From the NCBI RefSeq assembly GCF_003019035.1, contig NZ_CP027447.1: a stretch of 64,000 nucleotides of DNA. The stretch is one strand, 5' to 3'. Position 1 is the stretch's first letter. Each line of letters starts with the position of its first letter. A program made the translations under genes and the position numbers. Source of the DNA: Escherichia coli. GTDB taxonomy: Bacteria; Pseudomonadota; Gammaproteobacteria; Enterobacterales; Enterobacteriaceae. This document shows positions 13,551 to 40,209 of this stretch, piece after piece. Below the pieces are notes generated by a model. The model was not told the DNA's origin. It searched no databases and saw only the letters and a program-made list of their open reading frames with translations.

Positions 13551-13918
13551 GGTGCCAGGTCGTTGATATCGCGGGTGTTAAACTCCAGCACGCGCAGGCC
13601 GTACTTCTCGTTGACCACCACCACTTCCGCTTTGCCCAGCAGGATATTGTTCACTTTGATATCCAGCGGCTCCCCGGCGAGCTTATCCAGCTCAATCACC
13701 GTGTCGTCGTCGATGTTAAGCAGGTCGGCTAACATAATTTCCACCGACGACACTTCCAGCGTTAAGGTCACCGGAATGCGTTTCAGCAGCGTCATCGAGT
13801 CGGAAAAGCGGTCTTCCAGGCGGGTGACCAGCGTTTCGGCGTCGGCGGATTTCGTGACAGGCGCAACTTCATCGGCGAGGCCAAAATCCCCGGCTAAAAT
13901 ATCGTCTTGTTTACTCAT
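13547..13918 (-). CDS. lfiN: Flagellar motor switch protein FliN homologue
   Basis: SpoA/FliN C-terminal domain (...TLTLEVSSVEIMLADLLNIDDDTVIELDKLAGEPLDIKVNNILLGKAEVVVV...); start at the Met after the lfiM stop. Confidence 0.85.
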   Translation of the reverse strand: MSKQDDILAGDFGLADEVAPVTKSADAETLVTRLEDRFSDSMTLLKRIPVTLTLEVSSVEIMLADLLNIDDDTVIELDKLAGEPLDIKVNNILLGKAEVVVVNEKYGLRVLEFNTRDINDLAP

Positions 13919-14762
13919 GGCTATTCTCATTCTTGCCCGCCAGCTCCGACAAAAACAGTTTGTCTTTGTCTTCCACAATCAGGGCGCTAAATAATTCAGA
14001 TTGCCCAATCGCCACCGGGAACGTTTCTCCCAGCGAGATGGGTAAAATATCCCCGGCTTTTATCTGCGCCAGATCGGCGACATTCATCGATAGCTCGGCG
14101 ATTTTGACGTTCAGGGTCAGCGGCAGGGAGCGGATGATTTCTTTAATCAGGGCCGGTTTATTAACGGATTTCGCCACCTGCTGCGGTTTACTGTGCTCGC
14201 TGTGGCGGATCAGATTCAAAATAAAATCGGTGTGGGCGTCGTCGAGCAAAATACGAAAACTGCTCTCTTCATCGCCCGCAAGGGTAAAGGTTAATTGATA
14301 CGCCCAGTGGGTAATCACCGTGCTGCTGTCCAGTTTTAATTTCAGCGCAATACCGGAGGTTTGCAGATTAAAGATCAGCGTGCAGATATCCAGCGCGAGT
14401 CGGTTCTTTAACCGCGTTTCGGTTTTGGTCGGCAGCCCGTTATGCGCTTTCGCCTCTTCAAGAGAGGACTCCAGACCATAAAAATTGCCCAGCAGCATTA
14501 ACAGCAAGGAGCGATCAATATCAAACGCCAGATGCCCGACCTGGGAAACCATCAGTTCGGCGTTTTTATTAATAATATCCATTTCGCAGCCAATCTTTTT
14601 TAAGGTGATATTGCTGCGATGCTTTTTGAGAAAGTAGCTGCCAAGATGCGAATCAATCACGTCAAAATTCCCCGTAAACAGGGTCGGCAGGCGATGGTAG
14701 GGGCGTCCGAGCCGATTACCTTCTAATTTAAAGATGCCTGGCGTTTTACTGTACTTCAGCAT
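13911..14762 (-). CDS. lfiM: Flagellar motor switch protein FliM homologue
   Basis: 283-aa ORF directly upstream of lfiN, FliM-like. Confidence 0.8.
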   Translation of the reverse strand: MLKYSKTPGIFKLEGNRLGRPYHRLPTLFTGNFDVIDSHLGSYFLKKHRSNITLKKIGCEMDIINKNAELMVSQVGHLAFDIDRSLLLMLLGNFYGLESSLEEAKAHNGLPTKTETRLKNRLALDICTLIFNLQTSGIALKLKLDSSTVITHWAYQLTFTLAGDEESSFRILLDDAHTDFILNLIRHSEHSKPQQVAKSVNKPALIKEIIRSLPLTLNVKIAELSMNVADLAQIKAGDILPISLGETFPVAIGQSELFSALIVEDKDKLFLSELAGKNENSHE

Positions 14763-14940
14763 GGCTTACTTTCTCTGCTGTAATGGTATGGGTGTTTCTG
14801 TGCACGCAAATCCGGCTGTGACACAAGGTGAGGTATTAAATAGAGGGGGAGTGAAAGGGGCAAATTATTAATAGGGTGAAAAAATAATTAATCGATTAAT
14901 TGCTTAATGGGAGTTATTTTCGCCAATCAGTCTGCGGTCT

Positions 14941-14981
14941 GTCCCCTCGCCCCATCCGGGGAGAGGGTTAGGGTGAGGGGG
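14941..14981. repeat. GC-rich hairpin repeat unit in the lfiM-lafK divergent intergenic region
   Basis: CCCCTCGCCCCATCCGGGGAGAGGGTTAGGGTGAGGGG; same family as 5193 and 8476. Confidence 0.6.
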
Positions 14982-15134
14982 CATCACAGATGTCGAAATT
15001 AACAGTATTAATATCTAACTAATTGTTTACCATCAAATAATATTTTTATTATCGTTTAATTCGAACTTGTTAATCCCGCCGGTGATACGCTTCAGAACAT
15101 CCTGTTTTCTGTCGCTACTGATATCGTTCACCCT

Positions 15135-16121
15135 ATGTCTGAACTTATTGCAACTGCCGCTTCCAGCATTAACGCTTTTACTCTGGCAAAGCGTGTCGCC
15201 GCCTTTAACGTGCCGGTGCTCATTCAGGGCGAAACCGGTGCGGGCAAAGAGTGCGTGGCGAAATATATTCACACAGTCGCCTTTGGTGAAAATGAAAGCG
15301 CACCCTATGTCGGCGTGAACTGCGCGGCGATCCCGGAAAATATGCTGGAATCTACCTTATTTGGCTACGACAAAGGCGCATTTACCGGCGCAATTGCCAG
15401 CGTGCCAGGAAAAATGGAACTGGCGAATAACGGCACCTTATTACTCGATGAAATTGGCGATATGCCGCTGGCGTTACAGGCCAAAATATTACGCGTATTG
15501 CAGGAACAACAGGTTGAGCGATTAGGCAGCAACCGACAAATTAAACTCAATTTTCGCCTGATTGCCTGTACCAATAAAAACCTTGAACAGGAAGTTGCCA
15601 CCGGGCGTTTTCGTGAAGATCTCTATTATCGTCTGGCGGTGATTCCTATTACCATGCCGCCGCTGCGTGAACGTCTGAACGATATTATTCCGCTGGCAGA
15701 GTCATTTATTAAAAAATACTCCACGGTGCTGGTGAAAAATATCACCCTGTCGGAATCTACCCGCCGGGCGCTGCTCAATTACCGCTGGCCCGGCAACGTG
15801 CGCCAGCTCGAAAACGCCATTCAGCGTGGAATGATTTTAAATCGCGACGGCGTGATTTTCCCGGATGCCTTAGGCCTGCCGGAAACAGACGTTGCCGACC
15901 ACAGTGAACTGCAATGGCCTGTTCAGCCTGCCGTCCACATTGCCGAAACCAGCGATTTAGGCCAGCACGGACGAAGTGCGCAATATCAATATATCGCCGA
16001 CCTGATGCGTAAATATCAGGGCAACCGCAGCAAAATTGCCGACCTGTTAGGCATTACCCCGCGCGCACTGCGCTATCGACTGGCCTCCATGCGCAAGCAC
16101 GGTATCGAAGTTTTCTCCTGA
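15135..16121 (+). CDS. lafK: Sigma54-dependent transcriptional activator lacking an N-terminal receiver/regulatory domain (AAA+ core plus C-terminal HTH only)
   Basis: Walker A GETGAGKE 30 aa from the start, GAFTGA motif, C-terminal HTH (...IADLLGITPRALRYRL...); no in-frame upstream extension. Confidence 0.8.
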   Translation: MSELIATAASSINAFTLAKRVAAFNVPVLIQGETGAGKECVAKYIHTVAFGENESAPYVGVNCAAIPENMLESTLFGYDKGAFTGAIASVPGKMELANNGTLLLDEIGDMPLALQAKILRVLQEQQVERLGSNRQIKLNFRLIACTNKNLEQEVATGRFREDLYYRLAVIPITMPPLRERLNDIIPLAESFIKKYSTVLVKNITLSESTRRALLNYRWPGNVRQLENAIQRGMILNRDGVIFPDALGLPETDVADHSELQWPVQPAVHIAETSDLGQHGRSAQYQYIADLMRKYQGNRSKIADLLGITPRALRYRLASMRKHGIEVFS

Positions 16122-16135
16122 CCCGGAAGTTAAAA

Positions 16136-16477
16136 ATGAGCATTACCACAATCAACAGCACCATGCAGGCGCAAATCATGCAGGACGTGCAGCGGATGCA
16201 GGCCAACGCCCAGGCACCGGTGCTGCCCGCCATGACCTTCAGTTCCACCGACCCGGACGTTTCGTTTAACCGCATTATGAGCGGTGCGCTCGGTCATGTT
16301 GACCAGTTCCAGCAGGTGGCGGAGCAGCAGCAAACGGCTGTCGACACGGGCAAAAGTGATGACCTGGCAGGGGCGATGATCGCCAGCCAGCAGGCGTCGC
16401 TCTCGTTCTCCGCGCTGGTTCAGGTGCGCAACAAAATCGCCACCGGATTTAACGATCTGATGAGTATGTCGATCTAA
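16136..16477 (+). CDS. lfiE: Flagellar hook-basal body protein FliE homologue
   Basis: 113-aa ORF preceding the MS-ring gene. Confidence 0.8.
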   Translation: MSITTINSTMQAQIMQDVQRMQANAQAPVLPAMTFSSTDPDVSFNRIMSGALGHVDQFQQVAEQQQTAVDTGKSDDLAGAMIASQQASLSFSALVQVRNKIATGFNDLMSMSI

Positions 16478-22052: not shown

Positions 22053-22155
22053 ATGTTTAAAAAATCGCGTTTTTTCGACATATCCCCAAAACATGTCGAT
22101 GGCATAAACGTATTCCAACGACATGTTTAAAAATCGCATTTTATCGACATATCCC
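22053..22155. repeat. Two imperfect 33-bp direct repeats 70 bp apart, containing a TCGACAT/ATGTCGA inverted motif
   Basis: ATGTTTAAAAAATCGCGTTTTTTCGACATATCCCC (22053-22087) and ATGTTTAAAAATCGCATTTTATCGACATATCCC (22123-22155); second copy overlaps the stop of the minus-strand transferase gene. Confidence 0.7.
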
Positions 22156-24612
22156 TGACGATTCCTTGCCCGCCAACGTCTCCACAATCACCATCGCCGC
22201 CCGTTCTCCCGCCTTGCCATCCATAAACGCATCGCAATAGTGATGACGAATCTTCGTAAGCCGCGCCTGCACCGCACCCCAGTCAAACGCCTCTGACAAC
22301 AAATAACGCAGTTCCGCAACATCATGAGCCACCGGCAATATTTCGCGGATTCGCTGGTCGGCGCTCTCCGGCGTGGAGTAGCTTTTCTCGCCGTCGAGCA
22401 ATTCACTCATGCCCGGAAAGTCGAGCAGGATCACCCGCTTATCGACATGGATAGCATCGAAAATAAAGCCGCTGTTATCGGTCAGCACGTAATCGGCCTT
22501 TGCCAGCAGCGCCAGCGTGTGGCGGGCGGAGTCGGTGCGCTGTTTTAAATGTCTGCGCGCGAGTGCCAGCGATGCAGTTTCTTCCGGGCGCGAGCAGGTG
22601 CCGTGGTGCAGTTTGCAAATCAGGTTCACATCATCGCTTAAGCGCCCCAATTTTTCTGCCCAGTGGGGCAGGGAGCTTAATGCGCCAAACGTTGGGGCGT
22701 AGAGCACCGTAGGTTTACGGGAATCGGGTTGAATATTTTCTGGCAGAATGCGGTCAAACGTGCCGTTATGCCAGGCGTCGAAGCGCGGGTTGCCGACTGC
22801 TTTTGCATTGCCGAAATGCGCCAGCGCCCGCTGGCTGTAGTGGCTGTAACACAAAATGCGCTGATAAAAACGGTTCCAGTCGGCGTGGTTCCACGTCTCT
22901 TTGGCTAAGCCGTACATGGCGCGAACGTTCACCGCTGCCAGGCCATTGAGCGCGGGCGTGTGGTAGGGGCTGACCAGGCATTTCACCCGCTGACCGTGTG
23001 CCTGCATTTCAGATAAGCGCATTCCTTTAAGCTGCGGATCGTCGATGCTTTTTAGCGTCTCCAGCATTTCATCCAGAAACGGTTTAAACACGCGGTCATT
23101 GATCACCAGTGTGCAGCTCTGCCCCTGCGCCTGTAGAGCGGTGATGATTGGGCGATACAGCGAGTAGTGGAATGAGGTTTCCATAAAAAAGCCGATGGTG
23201 TTGGCGATGGGGAATGCGGATGGTTTTGTAACTACGGGTAACTTATTGAAATAGTGACTAATGTTGTCGGTCACTTTTTTCTCGATGTCACTAAAGCCCG
23301 GTCGCTGATAACTAAGGCTCGGGTAACAGGCCAGCCATTTGTCGGCGCGCAGCAGCGGCTGCCAGCACTCTTCCAGCGAGTGCTCACCGTTGCCCATCTG
23401 CTGTGCCAGTTGCGGGTAGTAGCGGCTGTTCACCAGATAAGCACACACTTTGCGGCAGTCCCGCGCGTGCACCAGCCCCGGCAAACTTTTTAGCATCGTT
23501 CCCTGCGAAATTTCGCCGCCAAGGATCATCACCTGCCAGGGAATTTTCGCCAGGCTCGCCAGCAGCGTGTTCAGCACCTGAATATGTTTCTCCTGCTTGA
23601 GAATAACCGCGTCATCTTCCAGCAGCAGATAGTTTTGCCAGCCGTGCTGTTGCGCCAGGCGCAGCGCCTGCAAGTGCGACAGGCGGCGGCCCCGTTGACC
23701 GTTTTCATCTTCACAGGCGGCAAGGCGGGTGATTTTCTCGGGCGGAATATGCAGCAGTGCCAGTTCTTCACGGATCTGTTGTAAGCGATCCGGGCGTTTA
23801 TCCAGATTGATCAATACGACCTGATCGATCGCCTGATGGTTGATCGCCTGGTGATGAGTGGCGTTATGCAGACTCAGATAAGCATTGCGGAGCAGCGGAT
23901 CGCGGACGATATCCGTAAGCGCCGCGTTTACTGGCGTGCTGGCCCCGAGAATAAAGTCTTTATCAAAGGTGTTGTGGCTGTGCGAGATACACAAAATCGT
24001 GCGCTCGCCGGGCAGTTGTAGCGGGTTAGCGCTGAAATTGTCGGTGAAACTTTTCTCTTCGCCTAAATTGCAATCGTCATCGTAGCGGTGCTTTTTCAGG
24101 TAGTTACGGTGATAGCAAAAGGTGCCGTTGAGGATGTTATGCGGGCCGAAGCTGCGGCTTTGAAAGATGCGATTGATGTGGCTGTACCAGATGGGGATCT
24201 GGTCGGAACCGGAGATGAGCGCCCGGTTTTTTTGCATCATAGCGATGGTGTAAGAGATTTTATCTGCCGGGTAGTAGTCGTCATCGTCCATGCAGAGGAT
24301 GTATTCGCCGCGCGCCAGTTCGTTGAGCATATTGCGTTTTTTGCCCAGCGGCAGTTTTTCCGGGTGATGGATGTAGCGGATGTTGAAGGCTTCCTGTGTG
24401 CCATTGGTCAGGCGGTCGATGATGTGTTGATGGCTTTGCGGGGAATCGTCGAGGATGATGAGTTCGCGGCGGTCTGCCGGGTAGTCCTGATAGCGGTACA
24501 TATAAAGCAGGTACGGCAGGAATGCGCTGCGGTTCCAGGTTGGCGTGACGACGCTGACGAACGGTTTTTCGCGCTGGGTGGCGAGTGTTTTGATAATGGT
24601 TGGTGTTGGCAT
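22141..24612 (-). CDS. Three-domain transferase: N-terminal GT2-like, central GT25-like, C-terminal TagF/TagB-like CDP-glycerol glycerophosphotransferase domain
   Basis: GT2-like VSVVTPTWNRSAF...ILDDS...CMDDDDYY; GT25-like VVLINLDKRPDRL; TagF-like LYAPTFG and VLTDNSGFIFDAI motifs; start set at MPTPTIIK because the longer ORF runs into a repeat. Confidence 0.75.
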   Translation of the reverse strand: MPTPTIIKTLATQREKPFVSVVTPTWNRSAFLPYLLYMYRYQDYPADRRELIILDDSPQSHQHIIDRLTNGTQEAFNIRYIHHPEKLPLGKKRNMLNELARGEYILCMDDDDYYPADKISYTIAMMQKNRALISGSDQIPIWYSHINRIFQSRSFGPHNILNGTFCYHRNYLKKHRYDDDCNLGEEKSFTDNFSANPLQLPGERTILCISHSHNTFDKDFILGASTPVNAALTDIVRDPLLRNAYLSLHNATHHQAINHQAIDQVVLINLDKRPDRLQQIREELALLHIPPEKITRLAACEDENGQRGRRLSHLQALRLAQQHGWQNYLLLEDDAVILKQEKHIQVLNTLLASLAKIPWQVMILGGEISQGTMLKSLPGLVHARDCRKVCAYLVNSRYYPQLAQQMGNGEHSLEECWQPLLRADKWLACYPSLSYQRPGFSDIEKKVTDNISHYFNKLPVVTKPSAFPIANTIGFFMETSFHYSLYRPIITALQAQGQSCTLVINDRVFKPFLDEMLETLKSIDDPQLKGMRLSEMQAHGQRVKCLVSPYHTPALNGLAAVNVRAMYGLAKETWNHADWNRFYQRILCYSHYSQRALAHFGNAKAVGNPRFDAWHNGTFDRILPENIQPDSRKPTVLYAPTFGALSSLPHWAEKLGRLSDDVNLICKLHHGTCSRPEETASLALARRHLKQRTDSARHTLALLAKADYVLTDNSGFIFDAIHVDKRVILLDFPGMSELLDGEKSYSTPESADQRIREILPVAHDVAELRYLLSEAFDWGAVQARLTKIRHHYCDAFMDGKAGERAAMVIVETLAGKESSGICR

Positions 24613-24790: not shown

Positions 24791-25720
24791 TCACGTCAGC
24801 AGCGAAAATGCTGACAGCAGCGGCTCTGCCGCACATAACGACTGGAGCTGCTGGCGAATCGCCGCAGCATTTTCACTCTCTCGCCAGCGTTCAAACACCG
24901 CAAAAAGGGCGAAAATATCCTCCTTCCGCAGCGGTGAACCATCCAGCGTCCATAAACTGATTAACGTGCGGATGAGATAAAAATCACACACCAGCGGGCA
25001 ATAATCTGCTCCGTCTGCCTGCCCAATCACGTCGTGATAAACGCGGTAAATCAGCCAGTTGCGCATCATCCACGGCGCGGCGGCAAAATGCTGTTGCCAG
25101 GTGGTTTGCCACTGCACCTTAAGCTGCTGTTGCAACAAAGCTTCGCTGTTGGCGTCATGCAACGTCAGCAAAGTCACCTGCAACGGTAGCGAGGCTTTGC
25201 GCGGGCTTTCCGGCAAAATCGACCAGTCAAACGCAAAACTCCCGAGCAGCGTCACCAGTTGGCGCGCCAGTTGTGGCACGGGTGGGAGTTGGGCGAACTG
25301 TGCCTGTAGCGTGCCTTTTTGTGCATGATCCCCCAGCGCCTGTGGCAGCGTTGTCAAGCGGGCAAGAATATCTCCGTCTCTGCCCGGCATTTTACTGGCG
25401 CGGGAGAGCAAAATCCCGACGGCATACAGGGAAAGCTCCGGGGTTAAATCGGGGAGCGTAAGGGTACTCAAAATTATCTGGTTGACTATCGCATCGCGCG
25501 CGGATAGCTCGGCGGCATTGTCTTCCACAGGGCGGTAGGTGAGCTGTAAATCAAAGGCCCTGGCATCGTTGAGCACCGCTTTGCAACTTTCAATATCGGT
25601 CAATGCCAGGCTCTGGCGAATCTCATTCTTCCAGACCTTGCGGACGTACAAAGGCGAATCGGGATATTGCGTCATAAAATTGCGCACGTATTCCGGTTCG
25701 TAACATTCAATAAAACTCAT
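24791..25720 (-). CDS. Hypothetical protein (309 aa) in the Flag-2 variable/modification region
   Basis: Long ORF co-oriented with lfgN and the transferase gene; no motif I can assign; start chosen at the first ATG (ORF-track start is TTG). Confidence 0.6.
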   Translation of the reverse strand: MSFIECYEPEYVRNFMTQYPDSPLYVRKVWKNEIRQSLALTDIESCKAVLNDARAFDLQLTYRPVEDNAAELSARDAIVNQIILSTLTLPDLTPELSLYAVGILLSRASKMPGRDGDILARLTTLPQALGDHAQKGTLQAQFAQLPPVPQLARQLVTLLGSFAFDWSILPESPRKASLPLQVTLLTLHDANSEALLQQQLKVQWQTTWQQHFAAAPWMMRNWLIYRVYHDVIGQADGADYCPLVCDFYLIRTLISLWTLDGSPLRKEDIFALFAVFERWRESENAAAIRQQLQSLCAAEPLLSAFSLLT

Positions 25721-25847
25721 AGGTGGCTTCCAGTCTTTATTACTTTGCGGAATGTGCAATAAGCGTGCCGGGAATTTTTGTAATCAAAAACAAGGGATTG
25801 AGAATCAGGCGGAAAATCCGTTTCCGCGATGGGGGAAGGAATTGTCG

Positions 25848-26647: not shown

Positions 26648-27406
26648 TTACTCCGCGCTTACCGTCGTCACCACGCCGCTTTCTGCCACCATTGCGCTGA
26701 TGACCCGCTGGCTGCTGGCGTTACGTACTTTCACCATCTCGCCTTTGCGGCCATTTTTCAGCGCCACGCCGGGCATCGAGGCGGTGATCCCCGCGCTCTG
26801 GTAAACAATCATCACCGGCTCATCGCGTTCGACCAGCACTGGCGAAACCAGCTCTTCTTTGGTGATTGGTCTGCCCGGTTGCAACGCGTGCTTACTGCTG
26901 AAACCAATTGCGTCATCGAGCTCCATCAGCACATCCCGCCGCTGGGCGCTGACGTTGTAGGGCTTCAGCTCCACATCATTTGCCGTGAGCGGCGTATCGC
27001 GGGCAATCAGTGACTTTGCCATCACCACCGGCACCAGAACATCCGGGCGCACCGCGACGTTCATCTGCCAGCTTTGCGGGCAACTGACGGTGAAGTTCAT
27101 CCGGTTAAGGGCGATTTCCGCAGGCGACGTCAGCGTGACGCCGGGTGACGTTGTACAGGGCGCGGCGGTCGCAATCTGCGACGGAATATAGACCTTAAAG
27201 GTGTAGCGATAGTCATGCCATTGCCGCTGCTGCGCCAGCGATTCAATTTTTTGGCTCGCGGCATTCAGTACCTGGGCGTTGATTTGTTCCCGCGCGCTAT
27301 GTTGCACGGGATGGACGGCGGCGTAGCCCGGTAAGGCCAGCGCCAGGAGGAAATAAAACTTCCGCCTGCAAAATTGAAAACTCATAAACCCTTTCTCATC
27401 AGTCAC
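26648..27406 (-). CDS. lfgA: Flagellar P-ring assembly chaperone FlgA homologue
   Basis: 252-aa ORF with signal peptide, divergent from the flgB operon. Confidence 0.8.
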   Translation of the reverse strand: MTDEKGFMSFQFCRRKFYFLLALALPGYAAVHPVQHSAREQINAQVLNAASQKIESLAQQRQWHDYRYTFKVYIPSQIATAAPCTTSPGVTLTSPAEIALNRMNFTVSCPQSWQMNVAVRPDVLVPVVMAKSLIARDTPLTANDVELKPYNVSAQRRDVLMELDDAIGFSSKHALQPGRPITKEELVSPVLVERDEPVMIVYQSAGITASMPGVALKNGRKGEMVKVRNASSQRVISAMVAESGVVTTVSAE

Positions 27407-27414
27407 TTAAAAAT

Positions 27415-27430
27415 TGGCACAGCGATTGCA
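27415..27430 (+). promoter_or_regulatory. Sigma54 (-24/-12) promoter upstream of lfgB
   Basis: TGGCAC-AGCGA-TTGCA, exact match to TGGCAC-N5-TTGCW. Confidence 0.7.
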
Positions 27431-27466
27431 TAGCGTATGCGGATTGAAGCAGGAGTGACGCAGGAA

Positions 27467-27802
27467 ATGGGGATCAGTTTTCAGCAGGCATTGGGAGTAC
27501 ATCCGCAGGCAGTGAAGTTACGTCTTGAGAGGACCGAGCTACTGACTGCGAATCTGGCGAATGTCGATACGCCAAATTTCAAGGCTAAAGATATTGATTT
27601 TGCCAGGGAGATGCAACGGGCAAATAACGCGGCGGTGGATGTCCAGTACCGCGTGCCGATGCAGCCGTCAGAAGATGGCAACACCGTGGAACTGAACAGC
27701 GAACAGGCACGGTTTTCACAAAATAGTATGGATTATCAAAGCAGTCTGACCTTTCTGAATCTGCAAATCAGCGGCATCAGAGAGGCCATTGAAGGGAAAT
27801 AA
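27467..27802 (+). CDS. lfgB: Flagellar basal-body rod protein FlgB homologue
   Basis: ...LLTANLANVDTPNFKAKDIDF... rod-protein N-terminal motif; start set downstream of the predicted sigma54 transcription start (ORF track 27437). Confidence 0.8.
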   Translation: MGISFQQALGVHPQAVKLRLERTELLTANLANVDTPNFKAKDIDFAREMQRANNAAVDVQYRVPMQPSEDGNTVELNSEQARFSQNSMDYQSSLTFLNLQISGIREAIEGK

Positions 27803-27804
27803 GC

Positions 27805-28236
27805 ATGTCATTTACTGATATCTATCAGATTTCCGGCTCGGCGATGACGGCGCAAACGCTACGTCTGAATACCGTCGCCAGTAACCTGGCGAATGCTAAT
27901 GCACCTGCCGGCAGCGAGGCGCAGGCGTATAAAGCGCGCAGCCCGGTGTTTGCGGCGGTGTATCACCACAGCTTGCTGGTGGGTACACATCGTCATGCCA
28001 TTGATGGTGCCAGCGTGCAGGTGCAGGACGTGCTGCAAACCGGCGGGGCGGTGAAACGCTATGAACCGCATTCGCCGCTGGCGGATGCTAACGGGGATGT
28101 CTGGTATCCCGACGTCAACGTGGTGGAACAGATGGCGGACATGATGTCGGCCTCGCGCGATTTTGAAACCAATGTCGATGTGCTCAACAACGTGAAAAGT
28201 ATGCAGCAAAGCCTGCTGAAACTGGGAGAAGCCTGA
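27805..28236 (+). CDS. lfgC: Flagellar basal-body rod protein FlgC homologue (uninterrupted)
   Basis: 143-aa ORF with rod-protein N-terminal (...ASNLANANA...) and C-terminal motifs. Confidence 0.85.
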   Translation: MSFTDIYQISGSAMTAQTLRLNTVASNLANANAPAGSEAQAYKARSPVFAAVYHHSLLVGTHRHAIDGASVQVQDVLQTGGAVKRYEPHSPLADANGDVWYPDVNVVEQMADMMSASRDFETNVDVLNNVKSMQQSLLKLGEA

Positions 28237-28949
28237 TGAATACCCTGGCGCTGAATGCGCAATCGCCGCAGCCGACCGCCACGGCGGAAAGCAACAACGT
28301 GGCGGCCAGCGACACGCAAAGTAGCAGCGATAGCTCGCCCGTCGATACCTTCCTGACGCTGTTTGTCGCTGAGATCCAAAACCAGGACCCGACCGACCCG
28401 ACCGACGCCACCGAATATATCGACCAGCTTTCGTCAATGGCGCAGGTGGCGATGATGGAAGAGATGAGCGTGCAGGCGAATACCAACGCGGTGTTGATGA
28501 GCAACATTCAGGTGATGGCGCTCGGCAACCTGGTGGGCGACGACATTATGGTGCAGACCACCGCCTTGCAGGTGAGTGACCAGACCATTAACGGTCGCGC
28601 CACGCTTGACGACGCCTGTACCACCGCCGATCTCCACTTTACCGATGCCGCAGGCGATGACTATACGGTGTCGCTGATCCCGGAAGGGAGTTCGTCCGTC
28701 GGGCCAGGCCAGGTGGATTTCTCGGTGAATCCCGCGGATTACGGTATCCCGCCGGGTGATTACGACGTCTCGGTGGTCACCAACACCGGGGAAGAAGAGG
28801 TGCCGATTGAAGTCTCCGGCGAAGTGGAAGATGTGCGCATCCCGCTCGACGGCAGCTCTCCGGTGCTCAATGTTGCAGGTGTAGGCGAAGTGCCGTTCAC
28901 CATGATTAGCCAGTTTGGCGTACCCGATGCCGACAGTGATGTGGCGTAA
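28236..28949 (+). CDS. lfgD: Flagellar hook cap/assembly protein FlgD homologue
   Basis: 237-aa ORF between the flgC and flgE homologues. Confidence 0.8.
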   Translation: MNTLALNAQSPQPTATAESNNVAASDTQSSSDSSPVDTFLTLFVAEIQNQDPTDPTDATEYIDQLSSMAQVAMMEEMSVQANTNAVLMSNIQVMALGNLVGDDIMVQTTALQVSDQTINGRATLDDACTTADLHFTDAAGDDYTVSLIPEGSSSVGPGQVDFSVNPADYGIPPGDYDVSVVTNTGEEEVPIEVSGEVEDVRIPLDGSSPVLNVAGVGEVPFTMISQFGVPDADSDVA

Positions 28950-37760: not shown

Positions 37761-38603
37761 TCAGCATTTCTGCACAGTATTTAACAACTTCTCTAAATTC
37801 TGATACATCGCGCGATTAATATCGCTGTTCTGCCAGCCTTCCACATTAAAAGTTAATTGCCAGCTACCATTGCACTGGTTGCGCAGAACAATATCACTTT
37901 CCAGTCGGTTACGAACATATTTATAATAAGTTGTCATTGTCATATTATGCGCTGACAATAAATTATCGAGTTTGTCTTTTCCTGGTTCGAGGGTTTGTGA
38001 CAGTAACGGTACGGAATTATTTTCCTTTCCAGAACTAAGATGAAATATTTTTATTCTTGGACTGTTAATTGACTCTTTTACCAGTTGCGGGGCGTCAGGT
38101 GTACTTTTCAAGTGTGAATACCCCACGGTCGAGCCAATAAATATAACAGCCGCGGTCAACGCTAACCCCATCAGTCCTTTATGTTTTTTTCTAACTGGTA
38201 CAGGCGGTGTTGTCGAAGATATCTCTTCTGACACAGTTTCCTGTACCTGGTCGGTAATCATCAGCTTTTCCGCAGGCGATAACTCCGGCAAAGACACATA
38301 CTCTTTATTGCACAAGTAACCTTTCTTCGGAATTGTTTTAATAATGTTCTGTTGTTTGCCATCATCGTCGATAGCAACGCGTAACGCATGGATCGCCGTC
38401 GGCAGGCTGTTACCGCCGACTATGCGGTTCTTCCATACTTCGGCACATAAATAAGATCGCGATAAAACCACATCGGCATTTTTTGCTAATGTTTCCAGCA
38501 AAATAAAATGGTATTCGCCGAGACGACGTGTTTCACCCGTTTCGCAATGTATTAAGGCATTAAGCGACGGGTCCATCCGCCAGTTGTTGATAATAATACT
38601 CAT
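37761..38603 (-). CDS. lafZ: ToxR/CadC-like membrane-anchored transcriptional regulator (N-terminal winged-helix domain, one TM helix, periplasmic C-terminal domain)
   Basis: Winged-helix core ...LSRSYLCAEVWKNRIVGGNSLPTAIHALRVAID...; hydrophobic segment GLMGLALTAAVIFIGSTVGY; gene is markedly AT-rich. Confidence 0.75.
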   Translation of the reverse strand: MSIIINNWRMDPSLNALIHCETGETRRLGEYHFILLETLAKNADVVLSRSYLCAEVWKNRIVGGNSLPTAIHALRVAIDDDGKQQNIIKTIPKKGYLCNKEYVSLPELSPAEKLMITDQVQETVSEEISSTTPPVPVRKKHKGLMGLALTAAVIFIGSTVGYSHLKSTPDAPQLVKESINSPRIKIFHLSSGKENNSVPLLSQTLEPGKDKLDNLLSAHNMTMTTYYKYVRNRLESDIVLRNQCNGSWQLTFNVEGWQNSDINRAMYQNLEKLLNTVQKC

Positions 38604-39089
38604 AGTTGAGTTTACCTTAGCAAGGGATAAATGTTTCCTGATAGTGCTTTGCATAAAGCACAGTCTTATACGTCCCTGAGAAGATGATTTTTCTGCGTGA
38701 TAATTAATATTTTATGGTAATAGGATTATTCTTAATCACTATATGGCGTGGAAATGTAACGAAATGACAGGACAGGTACAATAGCCAAATGTGTACTATT
38801 TGCAACGCAATGTAAATTTTGGCATCAGTACATTGAGAACAAAACGCGATAATTGATGACAATCTTAACTATATCAAGCATTTGATAAAGACATATTTTG
38901 ATACCTGGCCATGTGGCAGATATTGCTAATAATCTTTTTATCTGAATTTAAACTCTGCTTTTTTTTAGCTAAAAGTGGCATCGGATAATACGTGGCGAAA
39001 AAATTTTAACGGCGATTTTAAGTTTGCTCCTGAGGTGTCGTTTTTACAGGGTATCGAAACGAAAACGATTAATCCCAAGGAGCAGTATC

Positions 39090-40045: not shown

Positions 40046-40162
40046 ACGAACAACACCGCCTGCGGGCGGTGTTGTGCTTTCTGCGGCAGGCGTATTTCCG
40101 CCAGACCGGAAATGGCTTTTCCGCCTGTTTTTCAATCTATTGATTCTTCACATAAAAAATAT

Positions 40163-40177
40163 TGGCACGCCTTTTGC
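40163..40177 (+). promoter_or_regulatory. Sigma54 (-24/-12) promoter upstream of lafB
   Basis: TGGCAC-GCCTT-TTGC, about 30 bp upstream of the lafB start. Confidence 0.7.
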
Positions 40178-40209
40178 CAATAACCTGACATCGTTATCCG
40201 GAGTCATCA

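Follow-up and report, generated by a model that had tools for sequence, protein, structure and literature searches.

LafK has been grouped with PspF and HrpR/S as an activator lacking a signal domain ('type Ic'; Francke et al. 2011, PMC3162934), and sigma-54 sites at lfgB and lafB have also been reported earlier (Liu et al. 2015, PMC4578781). PspF of Escherichia coli has a three-part layout and belongs to a family with adjoining pspABCDE genes, while HrpR and HrpS of Pseudomonas syringae, likewise sensor-less, work as a paralogue pair controlling a type III-related export machine. FlrC of Vibrio cholerae, a flagellar sigma-54 activator, is a true response regulator that is phosphorylated by FlrB. 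The LafK proteins of Vibrio and Shewanella are 431-462 aa long and carry an N-terminal pseudo-receiver, and that of P. fragi, encoded upstream of fliE-J, has 468 aa. Because both the lafK gene and the class of domain-minimal sigma-54 activators have already been described, and the idea of a LafK without a sensor is published, a further sensor-less LafK is an ordinary finding that extends a known class only incrementally. What is new here is the loss of the domain in evolution, a third sigma-54 promoter, and a conserved dyad as a candidate LafK enhancer.

The lafK gene analyzed here lies in a 64-kb stretch of E. coli DNA, hereafter the window. Among 5426 complete genomes of the species, 1272 contain at least 80% of the window and 1410, about a quarter, have Flag-2. 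The gene and its domains are as follows.

15135..16121, plus strand: lafK coding sequence, 328 aa, ATG start (open reading frame, Pfam, matching RefSeq coding sequence)
15150..15650, plus strand: AAA+ sigma-54 interaction domain, residues 6-172 (PF00158, Sigma54_activat, E = 1.9e-64)
15228-15251, plus strand: Walker A, GETGAGKE, residues 32-39 (motif position)
15375-15392, plus strand: exact GAFTGA, the sigma-54-contacting loop, residues 81-86 (motif position)
15666..15872, plus strand: AAA+ lid (AAA_lid_14), residues 178-246, with sensor II inside (PF25601, E = 1.1e-19)
15984..16085, plus strand: C-terminal Fis-type HTH_8 DNA-binding domain, residues 284-317 (PF02954, E = 7.7e-9)

A preliminary description of this DNA had presented LafK as a PspF-like activator without an N-terminal receiver or GAF domain, beginning about 30 residues ahead of Walker A and equipped with a GAFTGA loop and a C-terminal HTH. 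The architecture was borne out in each of these respects. Pfam returned only Sigma54_activat, AAA_lid_14 and HTH_8, with no REC (PF00072), GAF, PAS or other N-terminal domain in LafK, and residues 247-283 (37 residues) are the sole part of the protein outside these domains. Walker B (LLLDEI, 102-107), the arginine fingers (FREDLYYR, 159-166) and sensor II (GNVRQL, 220-225) accompany the motifs listed above, so that the AAA+ catalytic motifs and GAFTGA loop that define a bacterial enhancer-binding protein are all intact. With AAA+ and HTH_8 kept and the N-terminal signal-recognition domain absent, LafK falls within the domain-minimal 'type Ic', and it is not an NtrC-type response regulator, there being no receiver in the protein or anywhere in the window. 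On sequence grounds, lafK of the Escherichia Flag-2 (lateral-type) locus therefore encodes a sigma-54 enhancer-binding protein without a sensor domain, which is expected to activate the sigma-54 holoenzyme in an ATP-dependent manner.

The likeness to PspF held for the domain layout, as both proteins have about 325 aa and start about 30 residues before Walker A, but not for the sequence. The two are 35% identical, PspF being distant enough to serve as a tree outgroup, and LafK scores below the cut-offs of the PspF family models TIGR02974 and NF008622 (237.4 bits versus 443.55, and 206.1 versus 529). Unlike pspF, lafK is surrounded by flagellar genes, with no psp genes nearby. Identity to the Vibrio-type LafK is higher, at about 49-50% across the AAA+ and HTH regions; the two share genomic position and tree clade, and the sigma-54-dependent lateral flagellar genes are the expected targets of both, whereas the pseudo-receiver is found only in the Vibrio-type protein. 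The top solved structure for LafK was that of FlrC rather than PspF (PDB 4qhs; 252.5 bits, residues 4-246); LafK differs from FlrC in having no receiver, and it also lacks the FleQ-type N-terminal domain of the FleQ/FlrA masters. In contrast with the HrpR/HrpS pair, the window holds one activator gene only, as tblastn of LafK against it matched lafK itself and no second paralogue.

The preliminary description had also predicted sigma-54 promoters at 27415 and 40163. Both proved to be exact matches to TGGCAC-N5-TTGC, and our scans added a third promoter and a dyad upstream of each.

27415..27430, plus strand: sigma-54 promoter of lfgB, TGGCACAGCGATTGCA (exact TGGCAC-N5-TTGC match)
27349..27363, plus strand: dyad GGAAATAAAACTTCC, candidate LafK enhancer, 66 nt upstream of the lfgB -24 element (dyad scan, cross-genus position)
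40163..40178, plus strand: sigma-54 promoter of lafB (fliD), TGGCACGCCTTTTGCC (exact TGGCAC-N5-TTGC match)
40108..40122, plus strand: dyad GGAAATGGCTTTTCC, 55 nt upstream of the lafB -24 element (dyad scan)
40096-40104: additional half-site TTCCGCCAG near the lafB dyad
25755..25770, minus strand: third sigma-54 promoter, CGGCACGCTTATTGCA (promoter scan)
25811..25825, minus strand: dyad GGAAACGGATTTTCC (minus-strand letters), 55 nt upstream of the third promoter (dyad scan)

All three sites (lfgB, lafB and the methylase operon) have 0-1 mismatch to the consensus. Conservation of promoters and dyads was assessed on the Flag-2 loci of other genera; divergent Flag-2 variants inside E. coli were discarded for this purpose, as the low-identity matches were to flag-1 flgC. 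At 0-2 mismatches, the lfgB promoter recurs ahead of the same gene in 37 Flag-2 loci of enterobacteria, and the third promoter, which is followed by genes for a lysine-N-methylase and a glycosyltransferase in variable region 1, has a counterpart in Pseudocitrobacter, E. whittamii, Citrobacter and Leminorella.

The dyad, with the consensus GCGGAA-N7-TTCC, lies upstream of all three promoters in the window and is kept across genera. Its extended form GGAAA-N3-7-TTCCGCC occurs three times in the 64 kb, against 0.07 expected, and only at the three sigma-54 promoters. Among sigma-54 matches from 36 enterobacterial loci, 37 of 43 have GGAA-N7-TTCC 55-56 or 65-68 nt upstream, compared to a background of 1.5% of 100-nt windows scored with the looser GGAA-N6-9-TTCC. 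With the window added and two mismatches allowed, there were 57 promoter-linked dyad instances at 53 unique sites. The offsets fall into two classes about one helical turn apart. If the T of TGGCAC lies near -26, the dyad centre would be some 70-85 bp ahead of the point where transcription is expected to start. The lfgB dyad falls within the coding sequence of lfgA, at the 5' end of that gene and on the other strand, and coding constraint could account for some of the dyad's conservation; those at lafB and the third promoter are intergenic. This pattern makes the dyad a candidate for the LafK enhancer. In the lateral loci examined from Vibrio, Bowmanella and Ferrimonas, no canonical sigma-54 promoter was paired with GGAA-N7-TTCC, and a sigma-28 promoter scan yielded two-mismatch matches only, none of them convincing.

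Upstream of lafK, the control region and the adjoining genes are arranged as follows.

14763..15134, no strand assigned: divergent lfiM-lafK control region, non-coding, AT-rich, 372 bp (stop, GC, promoter and dyad scans)
14929..14986, no strand assigned: GC-rich palindromic dispersed repeat, 58 nt, inserted in the control region (genome matches, hairpin fold)
13911..14762, minus strand: lfiM, which opens the divergent lfiMNPQR-lfhBA operon for export and the C ring (open reading frame, gene neighbourhood)
16136..16477, plus strand: lfiE (FliE), 14 nt 3' of lafK (open reading frame, gene neighbourhood)

The GC content of this region is 41.7%, or 36.9% minus the embedded repeat, compared to 53.1% in the window. 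Of 5426 E. coli genomes, 5399 have matches to the repeat, at a median of 14 places each, and it folds as a hairpin (-36.6 kcal/mol, z = -2.9). A single sub-threshold Rfam match in the intergenic region, to a eukaryotic antizyme frameshift element, fell on this repeat and is probably spurious. Short open reading frames of 45-83 aa also occur within the region.

In E. coli, Citrobacter and Hafnia alike, neither a sigma-54 match nor a dyad was found between lfiM and lafK, and autoregulation of lafK by sigma-54 or LafK was rejected for that reason. The gene is probably the first of a lafK-lfiEFGHIJ operon, and the lack of a sigma-54 promoter and dyad for the lafK and lfiM operons fits with control through lafK transcription. 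Class I, LafK-independent promoters of both operons presumably lie within 14763-15134; the fliM_L operon of Vibrio parahaemolyticus does not depend on LafK (PMC3930126). A sigma-70 consensus scan for lafK gave one weak site, intragenic, on the wrong strand and no better than shuffled controls.

That an activator of this kind is constitutively active, shifting control to lafK transcription or to a partner, as the preliminary description proposed, is a reasonable inference by analogy with PspF and HrpR/S, and its interpretation of LafK as a whole is partly supported. The best explanation of the data, to which we assign a probability of roughly 0.7, is that a sensor-less LafK is controlled by its level from the class I region and activates the three sigma-54 promoters via the dyad. 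The lafK-lfiEFGHIJ and divergent lfiM operons would fire from the AT-rich control region independently of LafK and sigma-54. As LafK has no cis-acting sensor, we infer that output would be set by the amount of LafK made. LafK dimers would bind the GCGGAA-N7-TTCC dyad, then oligomerise and open sigma-54 holoenzyme complexes by ATP hydrolysis and the GAFTGA loop. The targets would be lfgB, for rod and hook; lafB, for the cap, the chaperones, hook-length control and LafS, a sigma-28 factor; and the genes of flagellin modification. LafS would then drive the late genes. The receiver is required for assembly in some activators, such as NtrC, and loss of a receiver of that kind need not yield an active LafK. 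Consistent with control through lafK transcription, E. coli EC958 grown in LB at 28 or 37 C gave no detectable LafA flagellin (PMC4637896).

A trans-acting partner or small ligand that switches LafK post-translationally through its AAA+ domain would be compatible with level control rather than exclusive of it, although we consider such a switch rather unlikely. To our knowledge, partners of this sort are common to all well-studied domain-minimal activators, with precedents in PspA for PspF, HrpV and HrpG for HrpS, and FleN or c-di-GMP for FleQ. A further precedent is LafV of V. parahaemolyticus, a degenerate EAL protein that represses surface-sensing genes in a LafK-dependent manner (PMC9303241), and the silence of Flag-2 in EC958 despite the presence of lafK (PMC4637896) would also be accounted for. 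However, no candidate partner was identified, the window contains no second enhancer-binding protein and no free-standing receiver, and Trp56 of PspF, the PspA contact, aligns with Glu in LafK. Ligand control like that of FleQ is also disfavoured by what we take to be the corresponding motifs, as the FleQ-type 'RN' after Walker A reads 'KY' in LafK and the LFRS motif of FleQ would precede its Met1.

Comparison with orthologues places the sensor-less LafK in an evolutionary setting. Orthologues in more than 15 enterobacterial genera (including Citrobacter, Leminorella, Enterobacter, Pseudescherichia, Atlantibacter, Siccibacter, Budvicia, Pragia, Pantoea, Hafnia and Regiella) are 325-348 aa throughout, and those of distant genera share one starting alignment column, with no regulatory domain elsewhere in the polypeptide; the pseudo-receiver is missing from all enterobacterial orthologues compared. 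Four matches of 462-521 aa bearing REC or ACT domains were rejected as assembly chimeras, in which NtrC, TyrR or other N-termini are fused to the LafK C-terminus; they are joined at conserved motifs and lie on short metagenome contigs. The position of lafK between a divergent fliM_L-flhA_L operon and fliE_L-fliJ_L is common to the window, Citrobacter, Hafnia, Thaumasiovibrio and P. fragi, although in the Thaumasiovibrio (Vibrionaceae) locus motY_L directly precedes lafK, which is followed by fliE_L, whereas Flag-2 has no motY_L there. A neighbour-joining tree (200 bootstraps, rooted on PspF) united the Enterobacterales proteins at 100%, as sister to P. fragi at 70%, and nested them in a LafK clade with Vibrio, Shewanella and P. 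fragi at 59-70%, which is moderate support from a simple distance method. Gene order shows LafK of the window to be the syntenic counterpart of the Vibrionaceae, Shewanella and P. fragi proteins, with which it groups in the tree.

The pseudo-receiver of these 431-468-aa relatives, about 125-150 aa long in Vibrionaceae, Shewanella and P. fragi, is degenerate, with S, A, L or V at the D54 position and with T82 and K104 lost. Since the longer relatives carry this degenerate domain, the comparison marks the enterobacterial short form as a derived deletion, in which the pseudo-receiver was cut cleanly at the domain boundary in the ancestor of Flag-2. As in PspF, the protein begins exactly where the AAA+ domain does. 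A 345-aa activator from a Steroidobacteraceae MAG (P0154) likewise consists of AAA+ and HTH only and is encoded directly upstream of fliE-fliJ, differing in that another activator, 408 aa long, is encoded ahead of it; it falls on a different tree branch from LafK, and domain loss there looks independent.

The lafK gene could in principle be a 5'-truncated, decaying and non-functional remnant in a cryptic locus, given that many strains have an inactivated or partly deleted Flag-2 (PMC6993521, PMC11420993) and that it is unexpressed in EC958 (PMC4637896). We consider this highly improbable: dN/dS values of 0.04-0.10 against E. coli and Citrobacter orthologues indicate that the shortened gene has been maintained by strong purifying selection across its more than 15 genera, the catalytic motifs are all intact, conservation extends to the corresponding sigma-54 promoters and dyads, and the cut falls exactly at a domain boundary.

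The sequence ahead of lafK had been described as non-coding in all frames, so that lafK would not be a frameshifted longer gene, and this proved accurate, with the short open reading frames and the GC-rich repeat noted above as caveats. The lafK frame contains nine stops across 14763-15134, several occur in both other forward frames, and the gene opens at the first start codon past an in-frame stop. When six receiver or pseudo-receiver domains from LafK relatives served as tblastn queries, the upstream matches were at noise level (best 14.6 bits, E >= 0.9) and the window as a whole gave no significant match. Although a receiver domain would roughly fill the 372-bp gap and a clear Shine-Dalgarno is not present at the ATG, these observations, together with the identical 328-aa coding sequence annotated in E. 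coli by RefSeq, the presence of the region in 1272 genomes and the common start column of the orthologues, leave virtually no room for a mis-called start or a frameshift masking a longer, receiver-encoding gene.

A broader reading, on which we are evenly divided, would join these observations as follows: the ancestor of enterobacterial Flag-2 lost a pseudo-receiver that was already non-sensing, leaving LafK purely dosage-controlled and the lateral flagellar cascade gated only by transcription from the lfiM-lafK control region, for instance by way of silencing and anti-silencing or of the ToxR-like LafZ; the dyad that precedes every Flag-2 sigma-54 promoter by 55-56 or 64-69 nt would be the LafK enhancer; and the variable flagellin-modification island would belong to the LafK regulon.

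If LafK truly lacks a sensor, whatever signal switches Flag-2 on must act on the 372-bp lfiM-lafK region or on a partner, which narrows the search for that signal in a system present in many Enterobacterales besides E. coli. Simple reporter and footprinting experiments become possible with the three promoters and their predicted enhancer dyad, and expression of the single gene lafK may offer a way to turn on a normally silent flagellar system.

The window comes from an Escherichia chromosome and carries a complete Flag-2 (lateral-type) locus between yafL and dinB, in the order lfhAB-lfiRQPNM (minus strand), lafK-lfiEFGHIJ, variable region, lfgNMA / lfgB-L, lafW, lafZ and lafA-U. A match to this stretch was found in 1410 of 5426 complete E. 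coli genomes, and 1272 contain most of it. The lafK stop and the lfiE start are 14 nt apart, and lafK is therefore probably the head gene of a lafK-lfiEFGHIJ operon. In the lfgA-lfgC region (27000-28300), identity to E. coli E7-1N7 (NZ_CP134805.1) is 99.8%, compared to ~95-97% for most other E. coli, and lfgC (27805-28236), reported to be frameshifted in strain 042, is intact. The lafK gene and the domains of its product are as follows.

15135..16121, plus strand: lafK coding sequence, 328 aa, beginning at the first start codon past an in-frame stop
LafK residues 6-172: sigma-54 interaction AAA+ domain (Pfam, E = 1.9e-64)
LafK residues 178-246: AAA+ lid (Pfam)
LafK residues 284-317: Fis-type HTH_8 (Pfam)

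RefSeq carries the identical 328-aa coding sequence. A Pfam search of all 328 aa detected no further domains, and Walker A (32-39), the GAFTGA loop (81-86), Walker B (102-107), the arginine fingers (159-166) and sensor II (220-225) are intact. Only residues 247-283 lie in no domain, a stretch too short to leave room for a regulatory module. These results confirm the preliminary description of LafK as an AAA+ protein with GAFTGA and a C-terminal helix-turn-helix that lacks a receiver or GAF domain.

The 372-bp lfiM-lafK gap (14763-15134) has nine stops in frame with lafK, several in each of the two remaining forward frames, and a GC content of 41.7% (36.9% minus an embedded GC-rich repeat), compared to 53.1% for the window, indicating that it is AT-rich and non-coding, as had been claimed. 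Six receiver or pseudo-receiver domains of relatives, used as tblastn queries, detected no receiver similarity upstream of lafK or elsewhere in the window. Among the best 120 database relatives, LafK orthologues from Citrobacter, Leminorella, Enterobacter, Pseudescherichia, Scandinavium, Atlantibacter, Siccibacter, Budvicia, Pragia, Pantoea, Hafnia, Regiella and others are 325-348 aa long and have all three Pfam domains in common. When aligned, they start at the same column as LafK or 10-17 residues earlier, and this column is exactly the AAA+ domain start of PspF. Four longer homologues with REC or ACT domains (P0047, P0062, P0112 and P0078) were rejected as metagenome assembly chimeras: each fuses the N-terminus of NtrC, TyrR or some other activator to the C-terminal part of LafK, with the joint at a conserved motif (FREDLYYRL and PPLRER, for example). 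The dN/dS of lafK, 0.04-0.10 both within E. coli and in comparison with Citrobacter, indicates strong purifying selection. It follows that lafK is not a frameshifted longer gene, which was already discounted in the preliminary description, and not a decaying fragment.

The receiver-less form is correct but essentially already described, given that Francke et al. 2011 placed LafK, PspF and HrpR/S together among activators 'lacking the signal recognition domain' (PMC3162934), Liu et al. 2015 reported a full sigma-54 activation domain in LafK of E. coli PCN033 as well as consensus sigma-54 sites before lfgB and lafB (PMC4578781), and De Maayer et al. 2020 catalogued lafK over 461 complete flag-2 loci (PMC6993521). 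The original description by Ren et al. 2005 aside, what appears unreported in the accessible literature is the contrast with the Vibrio-type pseudo-receiver, the proposed derived loss of the LafK N-terminal domain, a third promoter before the flagellin-modification genes, and a conserved dyad.

The term "PspF-like" holds for architecture, but not for sequence. LafK is 35% identical to E. coli PspF, scores 237 and 206 bits against PspF family models with cut-offs of 443.55 and 529, and has Glu at the position of PspF Trp56. By sequence, the FlrC AAA+ domain is the closest solved structure (252.5 bits); NifA, NtrC1, NtrC and FleQ come next, and PspF scores 185 bits. Nor is LafK part of an HrpR/HrpS-type pair, since no second activator gene was found in the window.

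Among 1.84 billion representative proteins searched, the nearest relatives of LafK outside Enterobacterales are 440-470 aa long. One from Thaumasiovibrio (P0144, 445 aa) sits in a fliM_L operon / motY_L-lafK-fliE_L-J_L arrangement and has relatives, all of 431-462 aa, in Vibrio, Photobacterium, Enterovibrio, Grimontia and Shewanella; another, from Pseudomonas fragi (P0138, 468 aa), is encoded directly 5' of fliE-J. In a bootstrapped neighbour-joining tree (316 shared columns, PspF as outgroup), enterobacterial LafK proteins form a single clade (100%) whose sister is the P. fragi protein (70%), the two being nested in a group with Vibrio and Shewanella LafK (59-70%). The N-terminal domains of the longer proteins align with receivers and match Pfam weakly or not at all; the phospho-acceptor D54 is replaced by S, A, L or V, and T82 and K104 are gone too. 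Vibrio-type LafK has this N-terminal pseudo-receiver, whereas enterobacterial LafK is without the domain. These data are read most economically as a history in two steps: phosphorylation control would have been lost first, leaving a pseudo-receiver, and the whole pseudo-receiver would then have been deleted from the ancestral enterobacterial Flag-2 locus. Other receiver-less activators adjoining fliE fall on unrelated branches, for example P0154 of a Steroidobacteraceae genome, and such losses therefore recur. The Steroidobacteraceae MAG (L005, 4663-7038) encodes two neighbouring sigma-54 activators (408 and 345 aa) directly upstream of fliE-fliJ, neither with a recognised receiver; this looks like an independent case of receiver-less flagellar activators.

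Both sigma-54 promoters predicted in the preliminary description are exact TGGCAC-N5-TTGC matches, a third site has one mismatch, and all three are preceded by a common dyad of inverted half-sites, GGAA-N7-TTCC.

27415: sigma-54 promoter before lfgB
40163: sigma-54 promoter before lafB
25770 to 25755, minus strand: third sigma-54 site, CGGCACGCTTATTGCA
27349-27363, plus strand: dyad at lfgB, GGAAATAAAACTTCC
40108-40122, plus strand: dyad at lafB, GGAAATGGCTTTTCC
25825-25811, minus strand: dyad at the third promoter, GGAAACGGATTTTCC

The 64-kb window has three exact copies of the 9-mer TTCCGCCTG, each at one of the three dyads and in promoter orientation; GGAAA-N3-7-TTCCGCC was observed three times (0.07 expected), and three of the four occurrences of GGAA-N7-TTCC are the promoter dyads. 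The third promoter, downstream of lfgN and ~35 nt 5' of the annotated lysine-N-methylase start, with a large glycosyltransferase gene next, faces the variable region 1 genes (24791-25720 and 22141-24612). It has its own dyad, and Pseudocitrobacter, E. whittamii, Citrobacter and Leminorella each have an equivalent promoter; the variable flagellin-modification genes thus appear to belong to the LafK regulon.

Conservation was examined in 41 loci around lfgC homologues, one genome per species. A sigma-54 promoter (0-2 mismatches) precedes lfgB in 37/37 enterobacterial loci from at least 15 genera. For 37 of 43 sigma-54 matches with at most one mismatch (36 loci), GGAA-N7-TTCC lies 55-56 or 65-68 nt upstream of TGGCAC, whereas the looser GGAA-N6-9-TTCC is found in only 1.5% of the 100-nt windows of these loci. 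When the window is added and two mismatches are tolerated, 16 instances lie at an offset of 55-56 nt and 41 at 64-69 nt, the two offsets being about one helical turn apart. The consensus of 53 unique sites is GCGGAAR-N5-YTTCC, with half-sites and spacing fixed and flanks diverging freely. The lfgB dyad overlaps the first lfgA codons on the opposite strand, so coding constraint may contribute to its conservation; the lafB and third-promoter dyads are intergenic. The arrangement was not seen in Vibrio, Bowmanella or Ferrimonas loci. The dyad is predicted to be a LafK enhancer. One contig, in a record titled Chryseobacterium sp. 18061 (L023), carries a Citrobacter-like Flag-2 locus with LfgC 82% identical to that of the window, and is probably mislabelled or contaminated.

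The lafK control region also contains a GC-rich hairpin-forming element (14929-14986, -36.6 kcal/mol), a dispersed E. coli repeat (median 14 copies per genome, 5399/5426 genomes) that we take to resemble boxC-type intergenic repeats. A perfect 16-bp palindrome, AATTAATCGATTAATT (14886-14901), resembles the high-affinity H-NS motif TCGATAAATT, and Hafnia, Mangrovibacter and Pantoea have similar sequences, ATTAAT or TCGAT(A/T)AAT, in their intergenic regions; its presence and likeness could be due to chance in AT-rich DNA. LafZ (37761-38654, minus strand, 297 aa), with an N-terminal OmpR/ToxR-type winged helix (Trans_reg_C, residues 42-114), may act as an upstream regulator of Flag-2; lafZ is reported to be absent from EC958, where Flag-2 was silent (Kakkanat et al. 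2015).

The lfiM-lafK intergenic region is strongly AT-rich in five genera (29-42% GC), and contains no sigma-54 promoter or dyad in E. coli, Citrobacter or Hafnia, matching the LafK-independent fliM_L operon of V. parahaemolyticus (PMC3930126). For E. coli EC958 grown in LB, LafA flagellin was undetected at both 28 and 37 C (PMC4637896), consistent with control at lafK transcription. A trans-acting partner may control LafK, but no candidate was found. The preliminary description is supported in part, for the domain architecture; the constitutive activity it gives LafK is a prediction. An activator without a sensor, under a control region without a sigma-54 site or dyad, supports the preliminary description in placing the choice to build Flag-2 flagella at lafK transcription, and we put the probability of a purely dosage-gated Flag-2 cascade with a defined LafK enhancer at about one in two.
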